Shown: positions 26,523 to 40,478, counted from the stretch's first letter. The stretch: DNA of 64,000 nucleotides from an uncultured cyanobacterium (GCA_963710605.1 CAVQBA010000006.1:832001-896000); one strand, 5' to 3'. A program made the numbers and translations. Notes: generated by a model from the letters alone, not told the origin.

Positions 26523-29500
26523 TTGAGTTCAACTTTTAACGATATTCTTGCCCGATTGGTAACTCCAACAGAGGAAAATATATTTAATCGCATTCGTTTT
26601 AATCAAGATAGTAATGCTTTTGTTTTACCAGAAAATGGCAGTTATTCTTTAGTTGTTAATGGCGGTAATAGCGGCGGCGATTATAGTTTCCAACTTTTAG
26701 AATTGGGCTCTTCTGCGAATAACATCGATTTAGATACTCAAGTAACAGGCTCAATTGATAATGCTTTGGAGACACAAATATTACAATTTGAAGCCACTTC
26801 AGGACAAAATATTTACTTTGACTCTACTGATAATAATTTTTTGAGTGCTAATGTTTCAGTTTATGGGGGAGGAAATAAAATATTAGGTAATAATTCTAGC
26901 TTGAGAGATTTCATTTTCGATATTCCTAGCGATGGAATTTACAATCTCATTATTCAAAGTAATACTGAAGAAGTAATTAATTATGATTTTACTTTGGTAA
27001 CACCAGAATTACAACAAGCAAGTATCGAAATTGGTGAGACAACTACAGGTAATTTAGCCGAAGCAGGAGAAAAAGATTTATATTTAATTGAAGGTACAGC
27101 AGGGCAAAGAATTTGGTTTGATGGTTTAGCCTCTGATAGCTTTTTTGATATTGATGCTGATTTATTTAGTATTGATGGAAAGCAAATTCTCAATAATACA
27201 AGATTAAATCAAGATTCCAGTCCTATTATTTTGCCTACTTCTGGTACATATTCTTTAGTTGTTAGCGGGGGTGATGTAACTGGTAATTATAGCTTCCGTT
27301 TACTAGATTTAGATGATGATGCTATTAATATAAACACCCAAGTTGAAAATCAGACAGAAATTGATATTACTTTAGAAACAGGTTTAGAAACAAAACTCTA
27401 TCAATTTGAAGGCACAGCAGGACAACAACTTGTTTTTGAATCAATCTCAGCTTCTTCCTTTTTTACTGATGATTGGCAAATTAATGGCGTAGATAACGTT
27501 CAATTAAATCGAACACCAATTAACAATGATTTTGTCGTAACTCTACCTGCTAACGGCATATATACTCTACTGGTTGATGGTAGTAATAGTAATCTTACTG
27601 ACTTTACTTTTAAAGTTTTTGAACAAACGATTGAAGAACAAAACATTGCCTTAAATACAACTATTTCAAGTAGTTTAGCTAATAATGGCGAACAAGATAT
27701 TTATCGCTTTACTGGTAACGCAGGACAAAGAATTTGGTTTGATGGTTTAATTGCTTCTGACACTTCTAATATTAATGTCGATCTTAGTACTCCTACAGGT
27801 CAATCGCTTATTAGTAATCAAGATGTTGATGATGACTCGAATATGTTAATTTTACCTGAGTCTGGGACTTATACCATTACGGTAACAGGTGATAATGTCA
27901 CGGGTGATTATAGTTTCCGAGTTTTAAATCTAAGTGATGCCGAATCGATCGATTTAGATGAAGATATTAATGCTACTAACGATTTAGCTCGAAGTACTCA
28001 GTTATATAGTTTTGATGGTAGTATTGGGCAACAACTGTTAATTGATATGGTTGATGTTGATAGTATTTTCAACGGTAGTTGGCGTTTGTATGGTGCTAGT
28101 TCTGATGAAGCGATTGCTTCTGATAATCGTTTAGAAGATTTCAATGTTACTTTACCTGTTGATGATACTTATACTTTGGTCGTTTTAGGTAGTACTAATG
28201 ATTCTTTTGAATATACTTTTAATATTAACGATGTTACTATCTCTTCTAATATCAACCCTAGTGGATTTAATACGATTCAAACAGGTACATTAGCTACTGT
28301 TGAGGAAGAAGATATATTTACCTTTGATGCGGTGGCAGGTACTCGCTTTGTCTTTGATGGTTTGACTTCTGATTCTTCAAGCATCCGAGCAAGATTAACT
28401 TCCCCCGATAGCACTCAACTTTTTTCTAGTGTAAGATTAACCAATAATTCTAGTGAACTAACTTTACCTGAGTCTGGTACTTATTCTTTAACCGTTAGCG
28501 GTGCAGTAGGTGATTATAGTTTCCGTATTCTCGATCTTAATGAAGCTACAACTATTCCCCTTGATGAGGTATTTAACGGTAGTATGACTCAAGGTAGTGG
28601 GATTGAAGTATATGAGTTTCAAGGTACAGCAGGACAACAGTTATACTTTAACGGTATTTCTTCTACGGGTTCAGGAGATTGGCGATTATATAGCCCCGAT
28701 AATCGAGAAATTGATACCAGTCGCTTAACAAGTAATTTTGAAGCAACTTTACCTAGTAATGGTACTTATAAAGTCTTAATTGATGGACAGGATTCAAATC
28801 CTTTTGACTTTAGTGTAGAGATTGTCAATACAGAAATTCAATCCTCAACTATTAGTATTGATGAAATTGTTACTGATTCTTTAACTAAACTGGGTAGCAA
28901 GCATATTTACAGCCTTGATGGCACAGCAGGGCAAAGAGTATTATTTGATGGTTTGGGTTCAACTATTTTCAGTTTTGGTAGTGCTACGGCTGTTTTAAAT
29001 AGTCCTTCTGGCGAGCAAATAATGAGTAGTACCCGTACTTATCAAGATTCTGACTCATTTATCCTACCCGAATCGGGAGAATATTCTTTAGTAGTCAGTG
29101 TAACGAATGAAGCGGATGATTATAGTTTCCGTTTGCTCAATCTCGATAATCCTACTATTACTAATATTGCTTTAGATACAGTAATTGAAGATTCGATTGC
29201 GACTGATTTTGGCACCCAACTTTATCAGTTTACTGGTACAGCAGGACAAGAATTATTCTTTAATGGTTTAGATAATAGTGAACCTGTAACTTGGAGGGTT
29301 ATAGGAGCAACCAATGGAGAATTAGCAGACCAATCTTCTTTCCGAGATTTCAAGATAACTTTACCTTACGATGGTATTTATACACTTGCCATTGACAGCG
29401 ATAATAATAATCCTGTTGATTTTAGCTTTGAAATTGTCACTCCTAATTCTTCGGTTTCAACTATTGATTTGAATGAAGTTGTTACAGGAGAATTAAGTAA

Positions 29501-32500
29501 ATCAGGTGAAACAGATATTTATCAATTTACTGGTACAGTTGGGCAGAGAATCTTATTTGATGGTTTAGCATCTTCTGCCGATGAAATAGAAGTTTCTTTA
29601 ATTACGCCCACAGGTAAAAGTGGTTTTAGTAGTTTTCCTAATCGTTTCGATCTAAACGAAAATTCCGATACTCCTCTTACACTATCAGAAGCAGGTACTT
29701 ATTCTTTAATTGTTAATAGTGGTAATGGTAGTGCGGGTACTGTTACTGGTAACTATGGTTTTCAAATACTTGATGTTACTAATCAATTGAGTACAAATAC
29801 AAATACCACAGGTATATTTAACACTCTTAATGAATCTCAAGTCTTTCAATTTGAAGGTATTCAAGGACAAAAATTAGCTATTACTCCTACTGAAGGTGTA
29901 TTTGGTACGGCAGAACAATTATCTAATGCTACTGCTTTCTTGAGTACTGGTCAAGGTTTGACGGAGGATGGTTATTTGGGAATTGATAGGGCTTTGAATT
30001 TACCTTTCCGTCAAGGTTCAGCAGTAAATATTATTTTAGTTACGGACGAAGATCGAGATATAGCTGATGAGTCTTTGAATTTTGAAACTATTTTTAACGG
30101 TTTAGATGAGCAAAATTCTCTTCTTAATGTCACTATTAATGGTACTTTTTTAGATGGTGATGGTAATACGGCGTTGGGTGTAGATTCTGATGGTATTGCT
30201 TATATTGCTGATGGTACAGGAGGTTTTACTACAGCATCAGGTGGGGCGTTTGGAGAAGTAGGCAATAATCCAGATAGTACAGATCCTTTTAATTCTACTC
30301 AAGCAGATTATGTAGATTTAGCTTGGGATATTGGTGGAGCGGGATGGGATTTGAATCAGTTGAGAGAAGGTGGTGATACTGCAATATCTTTTACTGAAGC
30401 CTTTGTTAGTGTTAAAGCTCAAGAAATCGGCGAACAACTAGCGATCGATCTTTTATTCCCTAACAATAACATTACGGTAGAAAACTTAACAGGACAAGTA
30501 TTTGGCATTAACCCCAACGAAACCGCTACCTTTGAAGTTGAAATTACAGGAGATGGATTAGCTAGTAGTACTGAAATCTTATTTGTTCGCCCCGATACTA
30601 ACTTTGTCTTAGGTTCAATTCCTGTCGTTATTAATCAAAATTACATTTATTTAGCTCAAGCGATCGATCCCGATGGCGATTCTTTAACTTATAGTTTGGT
30701 TAATGCCCCTGATGATGCAACGATCGATGCTGATACTGGACGTATAGCTTGGAATCCTCCTGATGTTGGTACTTATGACTTTGAAGTAGCCGTAAGCGAC
30801 GATCGAGGTGGAGAAACAACTCAAACCTTTACCGTTGAAGTTGTGACAGTCGGTGCGGATAACAACGCTCCTGAAATAACTTCTACTGCCCCTAATTCGG
30901 CTAGAAACAGCGATCGATTTACTTATCAAGTCACAGCAACTGATGCTGATAACAATAGTTTACTTTACTTATTAGATTCTGCTCCCGAAGGCGTAGCGAT
31001 CGACTCAGACACGGGTTTATTAACTTGGACTCCTACCGAAACTCAAATTGGCGAACAAACGATCGTCATTAAAGTTTTAGATGGTAATGGTGGCTCGGAT
31101 AGACAAACATTTGATGTCACTGTTGCTGAAAATCAAGCCCCTGTATTTAATACTAATCCCGTTTTAATTATTAACGCCGAAGAGTTATATCAATATGATG
31201 TCGATGCGATCGATCCAGAAGGCACTGATGTTACTTATAGTTTTGGTAATAGCGTACCAGCAGGTATGACGATCGACTCTGATACGGGGTTAATTGAATG
31301 GACACCGACTAGCGAACAAACAGGGCGTTTTCCTGTCACTATATTTGCGATCGACGCTGACAATCAAAGAGCGTTACAGTCATTTATTTTGAATTTAGGA
31401 GGAGATAATGGTGGTGGTTCTGGAGGCGGTACGGGTGGCTCTGGGGGCATTACTCCTACTGGTACGGGTACTGGTAATTTAACTCAAGATTCTCCCATCG
31501 TTAATTTTGGTTACAGTAATACTTTAGTCAATCCTGGTGAAGAGATTTCAATTCAAGTTCAAGCGATCGATGATGTAGCTATTACCAGTTTACAATTATT
31601 AGTCGATGATAATCCCGTAACCTTAACTCCTAATAGTTTAAATAATGGAGCAATTAACACCGCAACCTTACAATTTAGTCAACCAGGTGTTTATGAAGCT
31701 GTAGCTATCGCTGAAGATGGTGATGGTAACACTGGTAGTAAAACGATCGAACTTCGTGTATCAGATCCTAACGATACCGAAGCTCCTGAGATAGAATTAG
31801 ATACAAGTTTTATCGATCCTTTAAATCCTGTTATTACCGAAAAAACTGATATTATTGGTTCGATTAGTGATGATAATCTCCAATTTTATAAATTACAAAT
31901 TGCTCCTACTAGCTTAATTGACTTAAATAATTTAGGTGAAAACGATCCTGATTATATTACGATCGCTGAAGGTACAAATAATATTGATGGTGTGATTGGT
32001 ACGATCGATCCTAATCTTTTCCGTAACGATACCTATTTTATTCGAGTCTTAAGTTTTGACGTTAATGGTCAAGGTAGAGTAGAAGGTGTAATTCTCAGCA
32101 TCGATTCACAAACTAAACCAGGTGAATTTAGTCTTGACTTTACCGATTTAACTGTACCAATTGCAGGAGTACCGATCGAAATTACTCGTAGTTACAGTAG
32201 TATCGATGCTAATATTGAAGGTGATTTTGGTTACGGTTGGCAAATTGGTTTGGGTGATGCCAGTATTGTTGAATCTTCCCCCGATGGCAGAGATTTAAGT
32301 GATGCTAATAATATTATCTTTAATACTGCTAATACCTTCTCTGTAGGTACAAGAGTCACATTAAACACCCCTGATGGACGTAGAGTTGGCTTTACCTTCG
32401 ATCCTGTACTTTCTGGTACTCCATTTTTCTTCGGTACACTTTATACACCTAGTTTTACTGCCGATGCAGGTGTATTTGCTACTTTAGAAGCAGAAGATAG

Positions 32501-35500
32501 TTTAGATAGTGTGATTATTAAAAGTGATGGTACGGTAGGAGCACCATTGTTTACTTTCTTGGGTTACAATCCCACAATTTACAGATTAACTACCAGAGAT
32601 GGTACAGTTTATCGTTACGACCAAAATGAAGGTTTAATTGATATAACCGATCGTAATGGTAATCTGATTACTTACAACGATGATGGTATTGTTAGCTCAA
32701 CAGGGGCAGAAATTCAATTTATTCGTGATGCCGAAGGGCAAATTACCGAAATTATCGATCCCGAAGATAAGTCTTTAGTTTATAAATATGATACTCAAGG
32801 TAATTTAATTGGTTTTGTCGATCGTGAAGAAAACGAAACTACCTTTAAATACGAAAGCGATATACCCCATTATCTCACCGAAGTTGTCGATCCATTAGGT
32901 AGAACAGGTGTTCGTACTGAATATGAAAATGGTCAAATTAGTAAAATCTTTGATGCTGATGGTAATGCCCTCGATATTAACTATGATTCTGCTTCTTCTA
33001 CTCAAACGATAAACGATCCTTTTGGTAATACTACCACTTTAGTCTTTGATGAAAAAGGTAATGTGATTACTCAAATTGATGCTGAGGGAGGTAGAACCGA
33101 AAGAACTTATGATGATGATAATAATGTATTAACCGAAACTGACCCTGAAGATAATACAACCACTTATACTTATGACGATCGAGGTAATATTCTCACAGTA
33201 AAAGATGCCGAAGATAACATCACCACGACTACTTACAATGACAATAATGATATTCTCACCGAAAAAGATGCCGAAGATAATATTACTATCAACAGATATG
33301 ATGAATTTGGTAATCGTCGTGAAAGAGAAGATGCTCAAGGTAATATAACTGAATATGATTATGACGATCGAGGTTTGTTGACTGTTATTACCGATGCTCA
33401 AGACAACGAAATTATTTTTACCTATGATGATTTTGGTTTTGTCAGAAAGTTAGAGTCTCCTGATGGTTCGGAATATACTTTCACCTACGACAATTTAGGT
33501 AACGTTACTTCTGTCACTAACGATTTAGAACAAACCTTTACTTTCACTTACGATGACGAAGGCAGACAAACTAGTGTTACTAATCCTAAAAACGATACAA
33601 GTTTCACTGAATACAACGCCGCAGGAGATGTAATAGTAGAAATTGATGAGTTAGAACGACGTACTGAATTTAATTATAACGATCGAGCTTTATTAATTGA
33701 AACGATTTTCCCTGACAATACTCCTGATGATTTAACTAATAATCCTCGTATCTTAAATAGTTATGACGCATTAGATCGATTAATTACCACTACCGATGAA
33801 TTAGGCAGAATAACCTACTATGAATATGATGCTCTTGGTCGTTTAGTTGAAACCATTTATCCTGATAATACGCCTGAAGATTTGACTGATAATCCCTCAA
33901 TGAAAATGGAGTATTATAGTGATGGCACAATCAAAGCAGAAATTGATGAGTTAGGTAATCGTACCGAATTTGAATACGATAAAGCTAATAATTTAATTTT
34001 GGAAAGAGATGCTTTAGGATTTGAAACCGAATTTGAATACGATAAAGTAGGTAATCAAAGAGCGATAATCGACGCTAATAATCATCGTACCGAATTTGAA
34101 TACGATCGTTTAGGACAATTAGTTAAAACTATCTTTGCTAATAATACCGAAGAAAGACGCTTTTATAACAGTTTAGGTTATCTGATTGAAATAATCGATC
34201 CCGAACAAATGAAAACGATCGATGATGAAAGACTTAGCACTGAATACGAATACGATGCCCTCGGCAGACTAACTAAAGTTATCAATGCCATTGGTGGTGA
34301 AACTGAATACATCCTCGATACGGCAGGTAATATTATCGAACAAATCGATGCTAATGGTAATACAGTTACTTTTGGCTATGACAATTTGAACCAAGTAATT
34401 TCGACTACCTTACCATTACAAAAACTAGAAAATGGACTATTAGTCGATAATACAGCCACCACCACTTATGATAAAGTCGGCAACATTAAAACCATTACTG
34501 ACTATAACGGCGTAGTCACTACCTTTAATTACGATGCCCGTGATATGTTAATCTCTCGTAGTTATTCCGATGACACTCCCACCGAAACCTTTACCTATAC
34601 TCTGACAGGGCAATTAAAAACCGTAACCGACAACCGAGGTACAACTACTTATAACTATGACGAACGAGATCGCTTACTATCCCGTACCGAACCCGATGGA
34701 CGTACCATCTCTTATACTTACGATTCCGCTGGTAATATTCTTACTTTAATTACTGCTTCTGGCACAACTGTTTATACTTATGATGCTCTCAATCGGATTG
34801 ATACGGTTGAATCTGCTGATGGTGGTATTACAGACTATGATTACGATCGAGTTGGTAATTTAATTGAAACTACCTTACCTAATGGTGTCGTCGAAAATCG
34901 TAATTATGATAATCTCGATCGTCTCATCTATCTAGAAAATGTCAATGGTAATAATGTTATTTCTAGTTATGACTATACTCTCGACAATGTTGGTAATCGT
35001 ACTCGGATTGAGGAAGAAGACGGCAGAATTATAGAATATGAATATGATGCTCTCTATCGTCTCACCAAAGAAACCGTTACCGATCCAGTCAATGGCAACT
35101 ATACGATCGAATATGGTTACGATGCGGTAGGTAATCGCCTCCAGAAGATTGATTCACTCAACGGTACGACTACCTATATCTATGATGATAACGATCGTCT
35201 TCTCAGCGAAACTACGGGGGATGTGGTAACTCAATATCAATATGATGATGCAGGTAATTTGACTAGCGTTATTGTGGATGGAGAAACGACTCAAACCCTA
35301 GAATGGAATGCCAAAGGCGAGTTAACGGCGGTGGAAGTCATTGAAAATGGCGAAACAGGTAGAACAGAGTTTGAATACGACCAGAATGGTGTCCGAGTAG
35401 CGGTTACTGTTGATGGCGAAGAGACTCGTTTCTTAATCGATAACAATCAACAACTGTTTGCTCAAGTAATTGAGGAATATTTAGTTAATGGTGAGGTTAA

Positions 35501-36110
35501 CAACTCTTATACTCATGGTTTAGATTTAATTTCTCAAGATGATGGTACAGACAGAGTTTACTATCAAGTAGATGGTTTGGGTAGCACTCGCAATATTACC
35601 GATACTAATGGTGATGTGCTGGTCGAATATACTTTTGATGCTTATGGTAATTTAATTAGTCAGGTTGGCGATAGCGAGAATAATTATTTATTTACTGGTG
35701 AGCAATTTGATAATGAAATAGGCTTACAATATAACCGTGCCAGATATTATGATGCTTCTACAGGAAGGTTTATTTCACGCGATCCTTTTGAAGGGTTTAA
35801 TGATTTACCTGTTAGTTTACATGATTATTTGTATGCTAATGTAAATCCCGTGAATGCGATCGATCCTAGTGGGGAGGTTACTACGTTAGAGTATGCTATT
35901 CTGGCAACTTTGATTGTTGGGAAACAATTTGCTGCTAGCCAATTGTGTCCCACTTTTACATTCGGTGCTGCAACTGCCATAATTGATTTGGCACTTGCAA
36001 TTATTTTCGTTCATTATAAAGTAGCAACAGTGTTAGCTCTTGCCATATCTGGTGTTACATCAAGTTATCTTTTGGGAGCTGGTGCTCTTTGTGCCGGGCT
36101 GAGAAAGTAA
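26523..36110 (+). CDS. Rhs/adhesin fragment 3: PPC-like repeats, C-half of vWA, Ig-like domains, YD repeats, Rhs core, hydrophobic tip
   Basis: Repeated GTAGQRIxFDG...LPESGxY; many YDxxGN/YDxxGR repeats; FTGEQFD...YNRARYYD...GRFISRDP...YANVNPVNAIDPSG. Confidence 0.9.
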   Translation: MSSTFNDILARLVTPTEENIFNRIRFNQDSNAFVLPENGSYSLVVNGGNSGGDYSFQLLELGSSANNIDLDTQVTGSIDNALETQILQFEATSGQNIYFDSTDNNFLSANVSVYGGGNKILGNNSSLRDFIFDIPSDGIYNLIIQSNTEEVINYDFTLVTPELQQASIEIGETTTGNLAEAGEKDLYLIEGTAGQRIWFDGLASDSFFDIDADLFSIDGKQILNNTRLNQDSSPIILPTSGTYSLVVSGGDVTGNYSFRLLDLDDDAININTQVENQTEIDITLETGLETKLYQFEGTAGQQLVFESISASSFFTDDWQINGVDNVQLNRTPINNDFVVTLPANGIYTLLVDGSNSNLTDFTFKVFEQTIEEQNIALNTTISSSLANNGEQDIYRFTGNAGQRIWFDGLIASDTSNINVDLSTPTGQSLISNQDVDDDSNMLILPESGTYTITVTGDNVTGDYSFRVLNLSDAESIDLDEDINATNDLARSTQLYSFDGSIGQQLLIDMVDVDSIFNGSWRLYGASSDEAIASDNRLEDFNVTLPVDDTYTLVVLGSTNDSFEYTFNINDVTISSNINPSGFNTIQTGTLATVEEEDIFTFDAVAGTRFVFDGLTSDSSSIRARLTSPDSTQLFSSVRLTNNSSELTLPESGTYSLTVSGAVGDYSFRILDLNEATTIPLDEVFNGSMTQGSGIEVYEFQGTAGQQLYFNGISSTGSGDWRLYSPDNREIDTSRLTSNFEATLPSNGTYKVLIDGQDSNPFDFSVEIVNTEIQSSTISIDEIVTDSLTKLGSKHIYSLDGTAGQRVLFDGLGSTIFSFGSATAVLNSPSGEQIMSSTRTYQDSDSFILPESGEYSLVVSVTNEADDYSFRLLNLDNPTITNIALDTVIEDSIATDFGTQLYQFTGTAGQELFFNGLDNSEPVTWRVIGATNGELADQSSFRDFKITLPYDGIYTLAIDSDNNNPVDFSFEIVTPNSSVSTIDLNEVVTGELSKSGETDIYQFTGTVGQRILFDGLASSADEIEVSLITPTGKSGFSSFPNRFDLNENSDTPLTLSEAGTYSLIVNSGNGSAGTVTGNYGFQILDVTNQLSTNTNTTGIFNTLNESQVFQFEGIQGQKLAITPTEGVFGTAEQLSNATAFLSTGQGLTEDGYLGIDRALNLPFRQGSAVNIILVTDEDRDIADESLNFETIFNGLDEQNSLLNVTINGTFLDGDGNTALGVDSDGIAYIADGTGGFTTASGGAFGEVGNNPDSTDPFNSTQADYVDLAWDIGGAGWDLNQLREGGDTAISFTEAFVSVKAQEIGEQLAIDLLFPNNNITVENLTGQVFGINPNETATFEVEITGDGLASSTEILFVRPDTNFVLGSIPVVINQNYIYLAQAIDPDGDSLTYSLVNAPDDATIDADTGRIAWNPPDVGTYDFEVAVSDDRGGETTQTFTVEVVTVGADNNAPEITSTAPNSARNSDRFTYQVTATDADNNSLLYLLDSAPEGVAIDSDTGLLTWTPTETQIGEQTIVIKVLDGNGGSDRQTFDVTVAENQAPVFNTNPVLIINAEELYQYDVDAIDPEGTDVTYSFGNSVPAGMTIDSDTGLIEWTPTSEQTGRFPVTIFAIDADNQRALQSFILNLGGDNGGGSGGGTGGSGGITPTGTGTGNLTQDSPIVNFGYSNTLVNPGEEISIQVQAIDDVAITSLQLLVDDNPVTLTPNSLNNGAINTATLQFSQPGVYEAVAIAEDGDGNTGSKTIELRVSDPNDTEAPEIELDTSFIDPLNPVITEKTDIIGSISDDNLQFYKLQIAPTSLIDLNNLGENDPDYITIAEGTNNIDGVIGTIDPNLFRNDTYFIRVLSFDVNGQGRVEGVILSIDSQTKPGEFSLDFTDLTVPIAGVPIEITRSYSSIDANIEGDFGYGWQIGLGDASIVESSPDGRDLSDANNIIFNTANTFSVGTRVTLNTPDGRRVGFTFDPVLSGTPFFFGTLYTPSFTADAGVFATLEAEDSLDSVIIKSDGTVGAPLFTFLGYNPTIYRLTTRDGTVYRYDQNEGLIDITDRNGNLITYNDDGIVSSTGAEIQFIRDAEGQITEIIDPEDKSLVYKYDTQGNLIGFVDREENETTFKYESDIPHYLTEVVDPLGRTGVRTEYENGQISKIFDADGNALDINYDSASSTQTINDPFGNTTTLVFDEKGNVITQIDAEGGRTERTYDDDNNVLTETDPEDNTTTYTYDDRGNILTVKDAEDNITTTTYNDNNDILTEKDAEDNITINRYDEFGNRREREDAQGNITEYDYDDRGLLTVITDAQDNEIIFTYDDFGFVRKLESPDGSEYTFTYDNLGNVTSVTNDLEQTFTFTYDDEGRQTSVTNPKNDTSFTEYNAAGDVIVEIDELERRTEFNYNDRALLIETIFPDNTPDDLTNNPRILNSYDALDRLITTTDELGRITYYEYDALGRLVETIYPDNTPEDLTDNPSMKMEYYSDGTIKAEIDELGNRTEFEYDKANNLILERDALGFETEFEYDKVGNQRAIIDANNHRTEFEYDRLGQLVKTIFANNTEERRFYNSLGYLIEIIDPEQMKTIDDERLSTEYEYDALGRLTKVINAIGGETEYILDTAGNIIEQIDANGNTVTFGYDNLNQVISTTLPLQKLENGLLVDNTATTTYDKVGNIKTITDYNGVVTTFNYDARDMLISRSYSDDTPTETFTYTLTGQLKTVTDNRGTTTYNYDERDRLLSRTEPDGRTISYTYDSAGNILTLITASGTTVYTYDALNRIDTVESADGGITDYDYDRVGNLIETTLPNGVVENRNYDNLDRLIYLENVNGNNVISSYDYTLDNVGNRTRIEEEDGRIIEYEYDALYRLTKETVTDPVNGNYTIEYGYDAVGNRLQKIDSLNGTTTYIYDDNDRLLSETTGDVVTQYQYDDAGNLTSVIVDGETTQTLEWNAKGELTAVEVIENGETGRTEFEYDQNGVRVAVTVDGEETRFLIDNNQQLFAQVIEEYLVNGEVNNSYTHGLDLISQDDGTDRVYYQVDGLGSTRNITDTNGDVLVEYTFDAYGNLISQVGDSENNYLFTGEQFDNEIGLQYNRARYYDASTGRFISRDPFEGFNDLPVSLHDYLYANVNPVNAIDPSGEVTTLEYAILATLIVGKQFAASQLCPTFTFGAATAIIDLALAIIFVHYKVATVLALAISGVTSSYLLGAGALCAGLRK

Positions 36111-36317: not shown

Positions 36318-36638
36318 GGTGTATCGATCGAGTGCGATGCTTTAAATCTCGCTTTCTTGTTCCCCCCTTGAGTAAGGGGGGCTAGGGGGGATCTAGTCTT
36401 ACTTAAAAGTAGGAGCGATCGTTTTATAGGATGTATTGACTGAGTGCGATCCCCCTAAATCCCCCTTCAAAAGGGGGACTTTCTTCTTTCTACTTTTCGG
36501 GTTGTTTATTTAAGTTTTTTCTTTCTCCTTGTTCTTCCCTTATTCAAAGCAGACTTTCCTCTATTCTCTTGTTCCCCCCTTACTTAAGGGGGGTTAGGGG
36601 GGATCTAGTCTTACTTAAAAGTACGATCGATCGTTTTT
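36318..36638. repeat. Composite palindromic repeat unit 1 (BIME-like)
   Basis: Alternating orientations of CCCCCTT-N-AAGGGGG hairpins with linker TTACTTAAAAGTAGGAGCGATCGTTTTA; homologous to units 2 and 3. Confidence 0.85.
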
Positions 36639-36699
36639 ATGAAGATGGAGGGCGATTTATTTTATAAGCTAAAATAAACTTAAAAAAGGAAAAGCTATA

Positions 36700-36918
36700 A
36701 TGTCAAACACCCTTCAATTTGGTCAAGTTTTAGAAATGATTGATAATCTTTCCACCGATGAACAGGATGATTTAATTAATATTATTCGACACAGACAAAT
36801 TGAGAAAAGACGAGAAGAAATTGCCCAGAATATTAATCAAGCCCGTCAAGACTATCAACAAGGAAAAGTATTAGGAGGAAACGTTGATGATATTATTGCT
36901 GAATTAAACAATGATTAA
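36700..36918 (+). CDS. Putative antitoxin (72 aa) of TA cassette 1
   Basis: Small acidic helical protein overlapping the downstream toxin start; paralog of 38103-38321. Confidence 0.75.
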   Translation: MSNTLQFGQVLEMIDNLSTDEQDDLINIIRHRQIEKRREEIAQNINQARQDYQQGKVLGGNVDDIIAELNND

Positions 36919-37195
36919 ATTAATTCTCACCTCATCTTTTAAACGAACTTTCAAAGCGATTATCAAAAGAAAACCATACTTAAAGCCTAAAATCGAATCC
37001 AAACTTAAATTGTTAGCTGAAAATCCTTATAACCCCATATTACGTACTCATAAACTTAAAGGAAAGTTATCAGGGGCTTGAGCTTGTACCGTTGAATATG
37101 ATTGTCGTATTGTATTTTGTTTTGAGCAAAATAAAGACACCTTAGAGGAAGAAATCAATCTAATTGATATTGGAACTCATGATGAAGTCTATTAG
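36911..37195 (+). pseudogene. RelE/YafQ-like mRNA interferase toxin with in-frame TGA at codon 57 (37079-37081)
   Basis: Hand translation MIKLILTSSFKRTFK...NPYNPILRTHKLKGKLSGA*ACTVEYDCRIVF...IDIGTHDEVY; the stop aligns with Trp in the paralog. Confidence 0.85.
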
Positions 37196-37575
37196 TACGA
37201 TCGTCTTTCTTGTTCCCCCTTTACTCAAGGGTGGCAATGGGAAAACCTAGTTTTACTTAAAAGTAGGAGCGATCGTTTTATGGGATGTATTGATTGAGTA
37301 CGATCGCCCTTCAAAAAGGAGACTTTCTTCTGTTTCTTGTTCTTCTCTTACTCAAGGTGGGCAATGGGGTGTATTGACTGAATACGATCCCCCGCTCATC
37401 CCCCTTAAAAAGGGGGACTTTCTACTTTTTATTGATTTGCGTTGTTTATTTAAGTTTCTTCTTTCTTCTTGCTCTCCCCTTATTCAAAGGAGACTTTCCT
37501 CTATTCTCTTGTTCCCCCCTTACTCAAGGGGGGCTAGGGGGATCTAATCTTACTCAAAGGGAGCTAGAGGAGATC
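37196..37575. repeat. Composite palindromic repeat unit 2
   Basis: Begins TACGATCGTCTTT directly after the toxin stop; colinear with 38600-39012. Confidence 0.88.
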
Positions 37576-37917
37576 TAACCCTTCAATAACATCAACAACA
37601 CCCTCTAAATTACGTAAAACATCCTCATTAGTAAACCGAATTACCCTTAATCCATAACCTTCTAAAATTTCCGTTCTTTTTCGATCGTATTCAATAGCCT
37701 CTTCAGTGTAATGCGTCTCTCCATCTACTTCAATTACTAACTTTAACTTAGGGCAATAAAAATCAACAATAAAATTATCGATTGGGCGTTGACGATGTAC
37801 TCTAAATTGAAAAGTTCTTAAATAATCAGACCAAAGTTTTTGCTCCGCTTTAGTCATCTTTTTTCTTAATTCTTTGGCTCTAGCAACAAGGTTTTTGTTA
37901 TATGGTAAATATTGCAC
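37564..37917 (-). CDS. DUF559 (Vsr-like) endonuclease domain protein
   Basis: LPYNKNLVARAKELRKKMTKAE..LW, RQRPIDNFIVDFYC, IEVDGETH, D..RT..L...GLRVIRFTN. Confidence 0.92.
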   Translation of the reverse strand: MQYLPYNKNLVARAKELRKKMTKAEQKLWSDYLRTFQFRVHRQRPIDNFIVDFYCPKLKLVIEVDGETHYTEEAIEYDRKRTEILEGYGLRVIRFTNEDVLRNLEGVVDVIEGLDLL

Positions 37918-38102
37918 CTTAGATAAGGGGGGCTTTTTAATTTATTTTATCTTTTGTAATCAGTGTACGATCGATCGTTTTTTCTAAGCATTGAAGAGCG
38001 CTCGTGGTTTGTGGATGAGAAGAGGGCTGAAATTATCGATATTGTCAAGAATTAAATCATGATAAAATACAAGAAATAAAATTTTTCAACAATTGACAAA
38101 AT

Positions 38103-38321
38103 ATGCTCAAAAGCTCATTATTTCAGCAAGCAATCGAAACTGTAGAAAAATTATCTTTAGAAGAACAACAAATACTAATTGAAACGCTTCAAAAAAGACT
38201 TTCTCAAGAACGTAGAACGCTCCTCAATGAAGAAATGAAAGAAGTTCATCAGGAAGTAAAAGAAGGACAAGTAAAATTTGGTTCGGTTGATGACTTTTTA
38301 GAAGAATTAGATCGGCAATGA
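38103..38321 (+). CDS. Putative antitoxin (72 aa) of TA cassette 2
   Basis: FQQAIETVEKLSLEEQ..LI...R...G.V.FGSVDDFLEEL; ATGA overlap with toxin. Confidence 0.78.
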   Translation: MLKSSLFQQAIETVEKLSLEEQQILIETLQKRLSQERRTLLNEEMKEVHQEVKEGQVKFGSVDDFLEELDRQ

Positions 38322-38599
38322 AAATAGCTTGGACACCCAAATCAATGAGAGCTTTTAAAAAAATAATTCGCAAGAATCCACAACTAAGAACACTAATTGA
38401 GATAACGTTACGACAATTAGTAAAAGATCCATTTCACCATAGTTTACGCACTCACAAACTTCAGGGTGATTTCTCTGAAACTTGGTCTTGCTCTATTAAT
38501 TACAGCTATAGAATAATTTTTGAATTTATAGAAAGCTCTAATGAAAAAGAAAAAGCAATACTATTAGTTAATTTAGGCTCTCATGATGAAGTTTATTAG
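38318..38599 (+). CDS. RelE/YafQ-like mRNA interferase toxin
   Basis: DPFHHSLRTHKLQG...WSCSINYSYRIIF...LGSHDEVY. Confidence 0.88.
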   Translation: MKIAWTPKSMRAFKKIIRKNPQLRTLIEITLRQLVKDPFHHSLRTHKLQGDFSETWSCSINYSYRIIFEFIESSNEKEKAILLVNLGSHDEVY

Positions 38600-39012
38600 T
38601 ACGATCGTCTTTCATGTTCCCCCCTTACTCAAGGGGGGCTAGGGGGGATCTCGTTTTACTTAAAAGTAGGAGCGATCGTTTTATGAGGTGTATTGACTGA
38701 GTGCGATCGCCCTTCAAAAAGGAGACTTTCTTCTGTTTCTTGTTCCTCTCTTACTCAAGGTGGGCAATGGGGTATATCGATCGAGTGCGATCCCCCTAAA
38801 TCGCCCTTAAATAAGGGGGACTTTCTTGTTTTTACTTATTAGTCTTGTTTACTTAACTTTCTTCTTTCTTCTAATTCTCCTCTTACTCAAAGCAGACTTT
38901 CCTCTATTTTCTTGTTCCCCCCTTATTTAAGGGGGGCAATGGGGGGATCTAATCTTACTCAAGGGGGGCAATGGGGGGATCTAATCTTACTCAAGGGGGC
39001 TAGAGGGAATCT
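38600..39012. repeat. Composite palindromic repeat unit 3
   Basis: Begins TACGATCGTCTTT after the toxin stop; includes a tandem duplication of AAGGGGGGCAATGGGGGGATCTAATCTTACTC. Confidence 0.88.
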
Positions 39013-39071
39013 AACCCTTCAATAACATCAACAACACCTTCTAAATTACGTAAAACATCATCATTAGTAAA
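39000..39071 (-). pseudogene. 3' remnant of a second DUF559 gene
   Basis: Near-identical to 37564-37635; translates FTNDDVLRNLEGVVDVIEGLDSL*. Confidence 0.85.
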
Positions 39072-39152: not shown

Positions 39153-40478
39153 TTAATCAATAAAAACGATCGCATCTTCACCTAAAACGATCGTAATATC
39201 CGAACTTAAATCACCTGTAGAAGAATATTCTAATTCACCAAAACCCAAACTCTTCTGAACTTGTTTGGCTGAAGTGCTATCTCCTTTTTGAACAATAATT
39301 TGTGTAGTTTCAAATCTCGGTAAATTACGCCCACTTTGATAAACATTACGATAACCTTGCTCGGACAAAATCGAAATGAATTTTTGACTTAACTGAGGAT
39401 TATCAGTACTATTTTGTACCGCTATTCGAGAACCTAATGCTAATCTACTATTAGTCGATACTGAGCTACTATCGATAAATTCTTCGATCACATTCGCTTT
39501 TTTGTTTCGATCGATTATCCAATAACTAGCATTGTATTCCCCCGGACGACTTCCACGCCCTGGCAGAGTTAACATTCTTAGATTTTGCTTTTCTAAGCCT
39601 AAAGAAAAACTCGCCAAACCAACAACTTCTGAATTAGTTAAATTAGTATCAATCTCATCTTGTAACACAGACCATATCCTAGGTGTTCTCCAAGCATTTA
39701 AAGGAGACTGTAATTTTTTTTGTAAAGCTTTGAGTAATACTTGTTGTCTTTGTATTCTACCGATATCACCCAAGCCATCACTACGATAACGAACAAATTG
39801 CTCAGCTTTGTTACCATCAAGATTTTGTTTACCTTGTTTTAAATCTATATATAACCCCTGAGTTTTGTCAGTATATTTCATATCAAAAGGCACATATACT
39901 TCAACACCACCGACAGTATCAATTATTTTACTAAAAGCAGTACTCGTTACTCTAATGTATTTATCTACAGTAATTCCGGCAAAATTATTTTCAATCACCT
40001 CAATAGTGTAATCTACACCACCATTGGCATTAGCACTATTAATTTTTTTTAATGTACCCCTAGGGTATCTTACTAAGCTATCTCTAGGGATAGAAAGCAC
40101 TTTGATTGAGGAATCTTTAGGGTTAACTCTGACTAACAACATCGTATCGCTACGCCCAGAAAACTTAAGCTCAGGATTATCTTCAGAATTAGGCACTTGA
40201 TCAATCCCCATTAATAAAATATTAACAGGTCGATCGATATTTCTCATCAACAATCCACTCAAACCTGCTCGTCTGGTATCATTAATTTTTTCTGCCATAA
40301 TCCGTATATCGACGGGTAAAGGAGTTTTTAAAGCAACAGTTGTACCTAAAAATGCCGACACGGCTGCGGTAATGGTAAAACATCCTCCCCAAACAAAACC
40401 TTGAATTAAAGGAGAAGTATTTTTTTTCATCGATGAAAATTTACCTATTTGTTTAGAGTTAATAGACTCACGTGCCAA
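39153..40478 (-). CDS. LCP (LytR-CpsA-Psr) family protein with LytR C-terminal domain
   Basis: NILLMGID, GRSDTMLL, LSIPRD, KINSA, FVRYR.D..GDIGRIQRQQ; start may be ATG at 40430. Confidence 0.92.
   Translation of the reverse strand: MARESINSKQIGKFSSMKKNTSPLIQGFVWGGCFTITAAVSAFLGTTVALKTPLPVDIRIMAEKINDTRRAGLSGLLMRNIDRPVNILLMGIDQVPNSEDNPELKFSGRSDTMLLVRVNPKDSSIKVLSIPRDSLVRYPRGTLKKINSANANGGVDYTIEVIENNFAGITVDKYIRVTSTAFSKIIDTVGGVEVYVPFDMKYTDKTQGLYIDLKQGKQNLDGNKAEQFVRYRSDGLGDIGRIQRQQVLLKALQKKLQSPLNAWRTPRIWSVLQDEIDTNLTNSEVVGLASFSLGLEKQNLRMLTLPGRGSRPGEYNASYWIIDRNKKANVIEEFIDSSSVSTNSRLALGSRIAVQNSTDNPQLSQKFISILSEQGYRNVYQSGRNLPRFETTQIIVQKGDSTSAKQVQKSLGFGELEYSSTGDLSSDITIVLGEDAIVFID

Follow-up and report, generated by a model that had tools for sequence, protein, structure and literature searches.

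In the genome of an uncultured cyanobacterium, a gap of ~3 kb between the gene for an RHS-repeat protein and a gene of the LytR family is occupied by small genes and by clusters of short GC-rich hairpins, and this islet is the subject of the present study. The source genome (G000) is an assembly of 7 contigs and 3.93 Mb with 33% G+C and a completeness of 84.9%; the window that we analysed is a stretch of 64,000 nt (G000:C6:832001-896000) on its contig C6, which is 946 kb long. The islet holds two toxin-antitoxin (TA) gene pairs, a gene of the DUF559 family and three hairpin clusters, in the order rep0, AT1-T1, rep1, DUF559 (on the minus strand), AT2-T2, rep2 and a DUF559 remnant. An earlier interpretation of this DNA, referred to here as the sequence-only reading, saw in it a possible integron-like array of TA cassettes captured or shuffled at CGATCG sites, the core of the cyanobacterial repeat HIP1. 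Its motifs and positions for the 18-mer copies, the stop junctions and the repeat blocks are all correct; absent from it were the DUF559 gene, the continuation of the spacers into that gene, the in-frame TGA of the first toxin and the genome-wide excess of CGATCG. The features are as follows, in window coordinates.

26523-36110, plus strand: gene for an RHS-repeat protein of 3195 aa, left border of the islet (open reading frame, ORF; the last 1195 aa match RHS_repeat with E 1e-124, in 15 stretches)
36318-36638: rep0 hairpin cluster, with no DUF559 gene adjoining (79-87% identity to rep1 and rep2, in two blocks); hairpins at 36362-36381, 36460-36478 (terminator-like) and 36574-36593
36621-36638, plus strand: first copy of the 18-mer GTACGATCGATCGTTTTT, the end of a repeat module, followed by a CGATCG-bounded TTTT/G-rich micro-unit of the kind that lies upstream of TA1 orthologs
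36700-36918, plus strand: predicted antitoxin AT1, 72 aa (ORF; overlaps the start of T1 by 8 nt)
36911-37195, plus strand: predicted toxin T1 of the RelE/YafQ fold, with TGA at 37079-37081 (ORF read through the TGA; profile matches)
37196-37575: rep1 hairpin cluster, on the 3' side of DUF559, beginning TACGATCG directly after the T1 stop
37564-37917, minus strand: DUF559 / Vsr-like PD-(D/E)XK endonuclease gene, 117 aa (PF04480, E 2.9e-31; PDB 3hrl, E 4e-15)
37965-37982, plus strand: second copy of the 18-mer GTACGATCGATCGTTTTT (sequence read; genome search)
38103-38321, plus strand: predicted antitoxin AT2, 72 aa (ORF)
38318-38599, plus strand: predicted toxin T2 of the RelE/YafQ fold, 93 aa, intact (ORF and profiles; 4-nt overlap with the AT2 stop)
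38600-39012: rep2 hairpin cluster, 86.6% identical to rep1 (BLASTN), with one extra 32-nt unit
39003-39071, minus strand: second DUF559 copy, a truncated 3' remnant of 69 nt or 23 codons (91% aa and 94% nt identity to 37564-37635)
39153-40478, minus strand: gene of the LytR_cpsA_psr family, right border of the islet (profile match)

Duplicated spacers and diverged toxin-antitoxin pairs

Both toxin genes end in ...GATGAAGTYTATTAG and pass directly into TACGATCGTCTTT (stop codons at 37193-37195 and 38597-38599); the junction TAGTACGATCGTCTTT that results is present in two copies genome-wide, both at the islet, where the only two copies of the 18-mer in the 3.93-Mb genome are also found. The sequence-only reading had noted that the spacers are much more alike than the genes between them, and this is borne out: rep1 and rep2 align over 372 nt with an identity of 86.6% (E 1e-121) and rep0 aligns with each of them as two blocks, at 79-87%, while the TA1 and TA2 regions give no BLASTN match to each other at E<=1e-5. 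The similarity of the spacers extends to 37635/39071 and so takes in the final 72 nt of the DUF559 gene (94% over 79 nt). The duplicated block has its right limit at this point inside DUF559, a breakpoint without CGATCG, and its left limit within ~20 nt of the toxin stops, where it is inseparable from the toxin tail because the last 21 nt of the toxin gene (..CATGATGAAGTNTATTAG) are near-identical across the toxin family in many genomes. For the same reason the tail common to T1 and T2 calls for no special junction, and it could serve as microhomology. Since the similarity runs into DUF559 and the second copy of the gene is truncated, the spacer is a duplicated segment that consists of a hairpin cluster and a gene end. 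This tract of ~0.45-0.5 kb, the product of segmental duplication or conversion within the locus, begins at the toxin stop, includes the hairpin cluster and reaches into the 3' end of DUF559.

This composite is private to the locus. BLASTN finds it nowhere else in the source genome, in which only hairpin pieces of 33-47 nt match elsewhere; its first 24 nt, with one position degenerate, have 0 exact matches in a collection of species-representative genomes, and none of the 15 metagenome contigs that match the 18-mer carries a TA homolog or the composite repeat. The sequence-only reading had put forward a search for the repeat unit, genome-wide and in related genomes, as its check; genome-wide, this search returns the one locus. 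Rfam, even at permissive thresholds, gives nothing beyond two sub-threshold matches to RAGATH-25 (20.7 and 17 bits; gathering score 49), which were taken as chance.

The genes between the spacers are assigned by sequence to two type II TA operons of one cyanobacterial family, each with a 72-aa antitoxin and a toxin of the RelE/YafQ fold. When T1 is scored with its TGA read through, T1 and T2 reach 41.3 and 38.6 bits with TIGR02385 (RelE/StbE; cut-off 27.9) and 38 and 30.2 bits with PF15738 (YafQ; cut-off 30), and the nearest solved structure is HP0892. The pairs share with RelE/StbE-YafQ systems the two small co-oriented genes, the antitoxin in first place, an overlap of 4-8 nt and toxins that pass the models, and they differ in the in-frame UGA of T1 and in their antitoxins, AT1 and AT2, neither of which matches any Pfam or NCBIfam family. 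AT2 has 34 cyanobacterial homologs besides itself, at 65-87% identity, which all lack a Pfam domain and go under the name Ssl2920 or hypothetical, and the antitoxin and toxin genes are conserved as a pair in 6 genomes. The earlier description of two diverged paralogous pairs is upheld by the profiles and by amino acid identities of 33% between the antitoxins and 40% between the toxins. A paralog at C7:268695, with 50% identity, is closer to T2 than T1 is, so the pairs do not come from one recent duplication, in agreement with the sequence-only reading; TA1 and TA2 would be old paralogs that arrived separately. Three further loci of the TA family in the source genome have neither the junction nor the repeats, and the same holds for the orthologs of TA2 in relatives (2 of 2), of which the one in G013 is 76% identical in nucleotides. 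Two of the three loci (G000:C7:465757-466220 and C4:1098696-1099099) are degraded, one with a toxin that has an in-frame TGA elsewhere and a shortened N-terminus, the other with an internal stop in the antitoxin and a truncated toxin.

A single old tandem duplication of a unit made of 18-mer, TA pair, hairpin cluster and DUF559, after which the TA genes diverged and gene conversion preserved the likeness of the spacers, would account for repeat families that lie in register at spacings of 1344 (18-mer), 1403-1404 and 1436 nt, and for the same layout of hairpin, ~27-31 nt and 18-mer before both pairs. We nevertheless consider it very improbable. Present data place T1 and T2 apart and not as sisters, and TA1 (86% nt orthologs in other genera) and TA2 (76% in G013; T2 50% to the C7 paralog) are each closer to other genes than to one another. 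Because each has closer relatives elsewhere, the TA split predates these genera, yet the non-coding spacers are 86% alike, and coding DNA under purifying selection (dN/dS ~0.15-0.3) should diverge more slowly than non-coding repeats.

DUF559 genes and their hairpins

The DUF559 gene of the window matches PF04480 with 108 bits (cut-off 20.6) over positions 2-104 of 109, and its final codons are encoded by the tail of a hairpin repeat. Five relatives have orthologs at ~80% nucleotide identity, and the hairpin at the 3' end of the gene is conserved in orthologs. The hairpins have the form C5-6 TT n2-6 AA G5-6, in many cases next to a C- or G-run that ends in GATC, and the source genome contains 164-176 copies by two loose patterns and 32 by a strict one. 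Clusters of at least two hairpins number 12, three of them at the islet, including the sole cluster of three hairpins; the nine others, all of two hairpins, adjoin ordinary genes, e.g. pilin and biosynthetic genes. In a sample of 81 genomes of the order, 63 contain the strict pattern, and the copy number reaches 324.

Within the reading frame of an Eco57I/MmeI-type methylase, 8 in-frame hairpin insertions are found in G010 and 9 in G007, and the frame stays open in both; such repeated insertion into open frames marks the hairpin as a mobile, MITE-like element. These methylase frames, of 1054 and 1320 aa (L069:7679-10843 and L071:7104-11066), adjoin DUF559, and their hairpin units encode repeat peptides of the DPPxPPLxKGG...KVPLNKG type (PPLxKGG type), in a number that differs between the species. 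Rickettsia palindromic elements are in-frame palindromic insertions, and the hairpins are comparable to them both in the units inside the open methylase frames of G010 and G007 and in the periods of their arrays (45, ~66 and ~75 nt), which are multiples of three; they are different in lineage and sequence, and the units in the window are intergenic. The region has 8 terminator-like sites against 2.1 +/- 1.6 in shuffles, 7 of the 8 being overlapping calls on three repeat hairpins, and hairpins with T-rich tails probably terminate the convergent toxin and DUF559 transcripts.

It is the DUF559 genes, and not the TA genes, that the hairpins accompany. All four DUF559 loci of the source genome have C-run/G-run hairpins on both sides, and the same is true of 4 of 4 orthologs in relatives. 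For a wider sample we took 30 DUF559 loci of the order and set aside 8 with an open frame of at least 389 aa (fused proteins), which leaves 22 stand-alone loci; with a hairpin defined as perfect, with a stem of at least 7 and at least 5 G-C pairs, and lying within 220 nt, 17 of the 22 have a flanking hairpin (14 upstream, 9 downstream, 6 on both sides). Control windows in the same loci contain one in 9 of 167 cases. The flanks of toxin-family loci contain one in 8 of 58 cases, none of the C-run/G-run type; this second control comprises the first 64 of 77 such loci less five and less one with short flanks, 13 loci being outside it. The association is seen again at the level of genomes of the order, in counts uncorrected for relatedness: at least 5 strict hairpins are present in 37 of 46 DUF559-positive genomes and in 7 of 35 DUF559-negative ones, with medians of 24.5 and 1, and the copy numbers of DUF559 and hairpins are correlated (Spearman rho 0.60).

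Two genomes are instructive in their detail. G085 has four DUF559 paralogs, each situated in a tandem array with hairpin loop variants of its own and periods of ~66 and ~75 nt; among the loops of these arrays (L072-L074) are AAAGTT and TTATGGAA. In G014, four hairpins are followed by DUF559, three hairpins, an AF2212-like pair, four hairpins, a BrnT/CopG pair and one hairpin, and 14 of the 79 hairpins of the genome lie within 2.3 kb around DUF559. By the terms of the sequence-only reading, other cargo should be found between such repeats: for the composite there is none, and G014 does show other TA cargo between hairpin clusters of the same family.

REP sequences flanking the gene are what defined the RAYTs, and the present hairpins resemble REP/REPIN/RAYT systems in several respects: they are dispersed, GC-rich, present in tens to hundreds of copies, often clustered, and flank a low- or single-copy gene on both sides, and in G085 the repeat variants differ from one flanked paralog to the next. 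The difference lies in the flanked gene, a PD-(D/E)XK DUF559 protein and not a Y1 transposase of the IS200/IS605 type, and in the existence of some hairpin-rich genomes without DUF559. One possibility, which we find rather unlikely, is that the DUF559 nuclease is the partner of the hairpin arrays in a REP/RAYT-like system built on another fold, in which each paralog maintains or spreads its own variant, units can land in frame within genes, and the arrays are recombination hot spots where small selfish cassettes, TA pairs among them, accumulate and swap. The array in the window might then be mainly the product of such a system, in which DUF559 would be to the hairpins what RAYT is to REP and which would make hairpin arrays and local duplications around itself, with the TA modules as trapped or attracted bystanders, a view that we likewise find rather unlikely. 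In its favour are the enrichment at DUF559 loci over both controls, the co-occurrence and correlation across genomes, the separate loop variants of the G085 paralogs, the concentration of hairpins around DUF559 in G014 and the 3'-end hairpin kept in orthologs. Against it, at E<=1e-3 DUF559 is not found in G084 (complete, with 105 hairpins), G080 (186), G045 or G078, the sole match in G044 is a fragment of 42 positions, 9 DUF559-positive genomes have fewer than 5 strict hairpins, the counts are uncorrected for phylogeny, and we know of no biochemical link between DUF559 and hairpins. A limited search of the literature on DUF559, alone or with mobile repeats, found no description of the association.

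An unrelated function is also on offer, since the DUF559 protein VsrA of Caulobacter is described as a Vsr-like repair nuclease tied to a solitary cytosine methylase and encoded by a stand-alone gene that is unlinked to the methylase gene (PMC12907096). The window gene agrees with it in being a stand-alone gene for a DUF559 PD-(D/E)XK domain, and a further parallel is that CGATCG, in which the host is rich, reportedly carries m5C in cyanobacteria (PMC4390886). It differs in its flanking hairpin arrays, which are not mentioned in passages of PMC12907096 on VsrA, and it is itself known from its sequence.

The TA1 cassette and CGATCG sites

Orthologs of TA1 in G006, G012, G015 and G018, which belong to two other genera, are 85.5-87.1% identical to it in nucleotides, and three flanking core genes are 65-78% identical. 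When the source genome is compared with these four, TA1 has a synonymous divergence (dS) of 0.30-0.61 and a 603-codon core gene one of 1.07-1.54; the corresponding values for genus g4 compared with genus g6 are 0.07-0.25 (TA1) and 1.0-1.4 (core gene). A fifth ortholog, in G016, has a dS of 1.3-1.9, which fits older or vertical descent. The TA1 dN/dS of ~0.15-0.3 means that the antitoxin and toxin genes are both constrained. The orthologs occupy different gene neighbourhoods, often islets rich in TA and methylase genes, and together these comparisons support the view that TA1 is a compact cassette exchanged horizontally between genera. To this extent the cassette modularity and gene exchange proposed by the sequence-only reading survive, although the "conserved composite repeat" on which it built is specific to the locus. 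One contig of 11.7 kb (L019, G012:C122) is packed with TA-like small gene pairs, which by eye and from N-terminal sequences are of PIN/VapC-like, AbrB-like, MazEF-like, BrnT-like, RelE-like and DUF4160/DUF2442-like types, together with a gene resembling a C5 cytosine methylase and CGATCG-bounded units between some of the modules.

In the four close orthologs (G006, G012, G015, G018) the conserved TA1 block begins at CGATCG, and a further CGATCG follows the stop codon at a distance of 3, 11, 28 and 27 nt respectively (2 nt in the source genome). Outside these end sites lie variable numbers of CGATCG-bounded units of ~24-35 nt with the form CGATCG-NN-TTTT-G-rich. Matches to the unit pattern number 23 in G018, 17 in G012, 5 in G006 and 0 in G015, with 11 (loose) in the source genome, and at least 5 of the 23 in G018 lie beside TA1-homologous DNA. 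The G016 ortholog is flanked by a different direct repeat without CGATCG. As each unit has CGATCG at its borders, the unique flanks are bound to begin with this site, and such a beginning is no proof that the cassette moved by recombination there. A search for the empty site with the TA1 neighbourhood of G006 in five genomes of genus g6 found that the flanks are not shared and that the species are too diverged for the comparison. A simple target-site-duplication model for the cassettes was rejected, the left flank of TA1 being repeat-like beyond the 18-mer and the ortholog ends sharing only CGATCG.

CGATCG is also exceedingly common in the host, with 8449 copies, 25 times the expectation or 1 per 465 bp, so that its mere presence at a junction is weak evidence; TCGATCGA has 1206 copies (32-fold) and HIP1 itself, GCGATCGC, is 75-fold in excess. 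Of 77 toxin-family loci 59 were examined, and 44 of the 59 are HIP1-rich (at least 3 CGATCG in the locus). In these 44, CGATCG lies within 5 nt of the stop in 2 (0.8 expected) and within 30 nt in 8 (3.0 expected), 3 of the 8 being TA1 orthologs; in the other 36 there is no CGATCG within 30 nt of the stop.

Published work has reported TCGATCGA as the dominant octamer in Geminocystis herdmanii (Elhai 2015, PMC4390886) and has linked HIP1 to excision and site-specific recombination (PMC13756078, PMC4390886) and, in Synechococcus PCC 7002, to a Chi-like stimulation of recombination (bioRxiv 10.1101/2024.09.10.611283). The SDR5 repeat of Nostocaceae is described as inserting inside HIP1 (PMC4390886, PMC5861425), and according to PMC5861425 SDR-like repeats had not been found outside Nostocaceae. 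What our sequences share with HIP1 and SDR5 is a hyper-abundant CGATCG core and the presence of ~24-35-nt CGATCG-bounded units, here flanking TA1 orthologs; these units, which resemble SDR5, are found outside Nostocaceae. A dominant SDR5-like spacing between CGATCG sites was looked for in the source genome, and only a 4-nt class, CGATCGATCG, and a three-base periodicity were found. CGATCGATCG, a GATC duplication inside the HIP1 core, has 151 copies, ~145 times the expectation, and the distances from one CGATCG site to the next have their peaks at multiples of three (21, 24, 27, 30, 33, 45 and 72).

A mechanism of capture at HIP1 cores, in which recombination at CGATCG inserts, exchanges or shuffles TA cassettes and possibly further small modules, maybe with the assistance of micro-repeats, as an integrase-less analogue of the integron, would make sense of the TA1 orthologs that in different contexts start at CGATCG and are followed by it closely, of the variable units beyond them, of the GTACGATCG that brackets both window cassettes, of the low dS between genera and of the published links between HIP1 and recombination (PMC13756078, PMC4390886, bioRxiv 10.1101/2024.09.10.611283). 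We judge it improbable. Such junctions are absent from both TA2 orthologs and from the three other TA loci of the source genome, most HIP1-rich toxin-family loci have no CGATCG close to the stop, the direct repeat of the G016 ortholog has no CGATCG and neither does the right end of the duplicated block, none of the metagenome contigs with the 18-mer has a TA homolog, and the units produce flanks that start at CGATCG whether or not recombination took place there. Of the junctions at HIP1-core sites that the sequence-only reading described, what stands is that both toxin stops abut CGATCG and that the ends of TA1 orthologs lie near it; the right breakpoint, the TA2 orthologs and the other paralogs do not conform.

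The T1 gene is intact except for a TGA in place of its single tryptophan codon (37079-37081). The ortholog in G006 has TGA at the same codon and is otherwise intact, and those in G012, G015, G018 and G016 have TGG. The allele of the source genome, 86.1% identical to that of G006 and 87.1% to that of G012, is not closer to the former, so the TGA change looks independent, and its occurrence in two genera may be convergent. Because the assembly contains at least one gene split over three frames, a sequence error at the TGA of T1 is not fully excluded; the TGA of G006 stands irrespective of it. The split gene, of the CCA-adding/poly(A) polymerase type (G000:C4:1251253-1252462), matches its G001 ortholog in three successive, slightly overlapping pieces, as if frameshifted, and together with the completeness of 84.9% it suggests either assembly indel errors or real pseudogenes. 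UGA at a tryptophan codon is the sole nonsense change that near-cognate read-through would revert to the wild-type protein, and its presence at the single tryptophan codon in two genera hints at dose attenuation of the toxin rather than loss.

How the islet may have been joined

The islet resembles an integron or CALIN in its co-oriented small cassettes, palindrome-rich spacers, TA cargo, which such arrays often carry, and (as in a CALIN, an integrase-less cluster of attC sites) the lack of an integrase nearby. As the sequence-only reading had stated for the window, no integrase is present: the whole of the 946-kb contig C6 has no match to PF00589, and the 8 matches in the source genome lie on contigs C1, C2, C4 and C5. 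The attC sites of integrons are single, imperfect and 60-140 nt long, whereas the spacers here, of 320-410 nt, consist of several short perfect hairpins and a gene fragment, an opposite-strand DUF559 gene lies inside the array, and the composite repeat is unique to the locus. The four junctions (36621, 37196, 37965 and 38600) read (A/T)GTACGATCG and contain no GTTRRRY core, in a check confined to the core motif and the architecture. With no tyrosine recombinase on C6, no core and a spacer that is a segmental duplication, the integron-like mechanism is not supported.

In its place we consider a patchwork reasonably likely, made up of selfish or accessory modules, with a local duplication, and joined without a dedicated integrase. 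The modules would be the two TA operons, the DUF559 gene with its remnant, and three clusters of the dispersed mobile GC hairpin. DUF559 and a hairpin cluster would have been duplicated locally and one copy then truncated, the third cluster being without a gene; the two TA operons, of different lineages and at least one of them imported, would have come to lie between the cluster copies. TA1 would have been acquired horizontally as a compact cassette, its toxin being now interrupted by UGA, and TA2 remains intact. As the joints lie in repeated sequence, we infer that the joining took place by short-homology or illegitimate recombination among repeats, plausibly after natural transformation; the recombining repeats would be the units of the hairpin clusters, the micro-units between CGATCG sites and the tail conserved among the toxin genes.

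Several observations weigh against this patchwork. The same 9-nt GTACGATCG flanks both cassettes and the 18-mer is found only at these two places, which plain duplication explains only if the 18-mer belonged to an older and larger unit with a period of 1344-1436 nt; the bracketing and the locus-private 18-mer fit either such an older, larger duplication or a site preference. A CGATCG that starts at most 2 nt from the stop is rare genome-wide (15 of 2146 stop-to-stop ORFs of at least 200 codons, 0.7%), and the one right after the TA1 stop is common to the source genome and the G006 ortholog, which makes it part of the cassette end and not noise. The alternation of hairpin clusters with other TA cargo in G014 is not predicted by chance accumulation. 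The dS baseline consists of one core gene together with the BLASTN identities of three.

As to the neighbours, the RHS protein (26523-36110) has a DPSGE motif followed by a hydrophobic tail of ~80 aa, and on its 3' side there is no obvious immunity ORF, the TA/DUF559 islet being found instead. Synteny with the same-genus genome G001 is not kept here: in G001 the LytR gene is followed by the CCA-adding-type gene, which in the source genome is on another contig.

Had the integron-like reading held, it would have meant a new system of gene capture, which the evidence does not support. The movement of a TA cassette from one cyanobacterial genus to another, with its ends at or close to HIP1-core sites, bears on the long-standing question of HIP1 as a recombination joint. 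The strong association of DUF559 with the hairpins explains what had been taken for spacers, and we regard it as the more interesting result, for it could give a widespread DUF (domain of unknown function) a function, and cyanobacterial repeats an enzyme that mobilises or maintains them.

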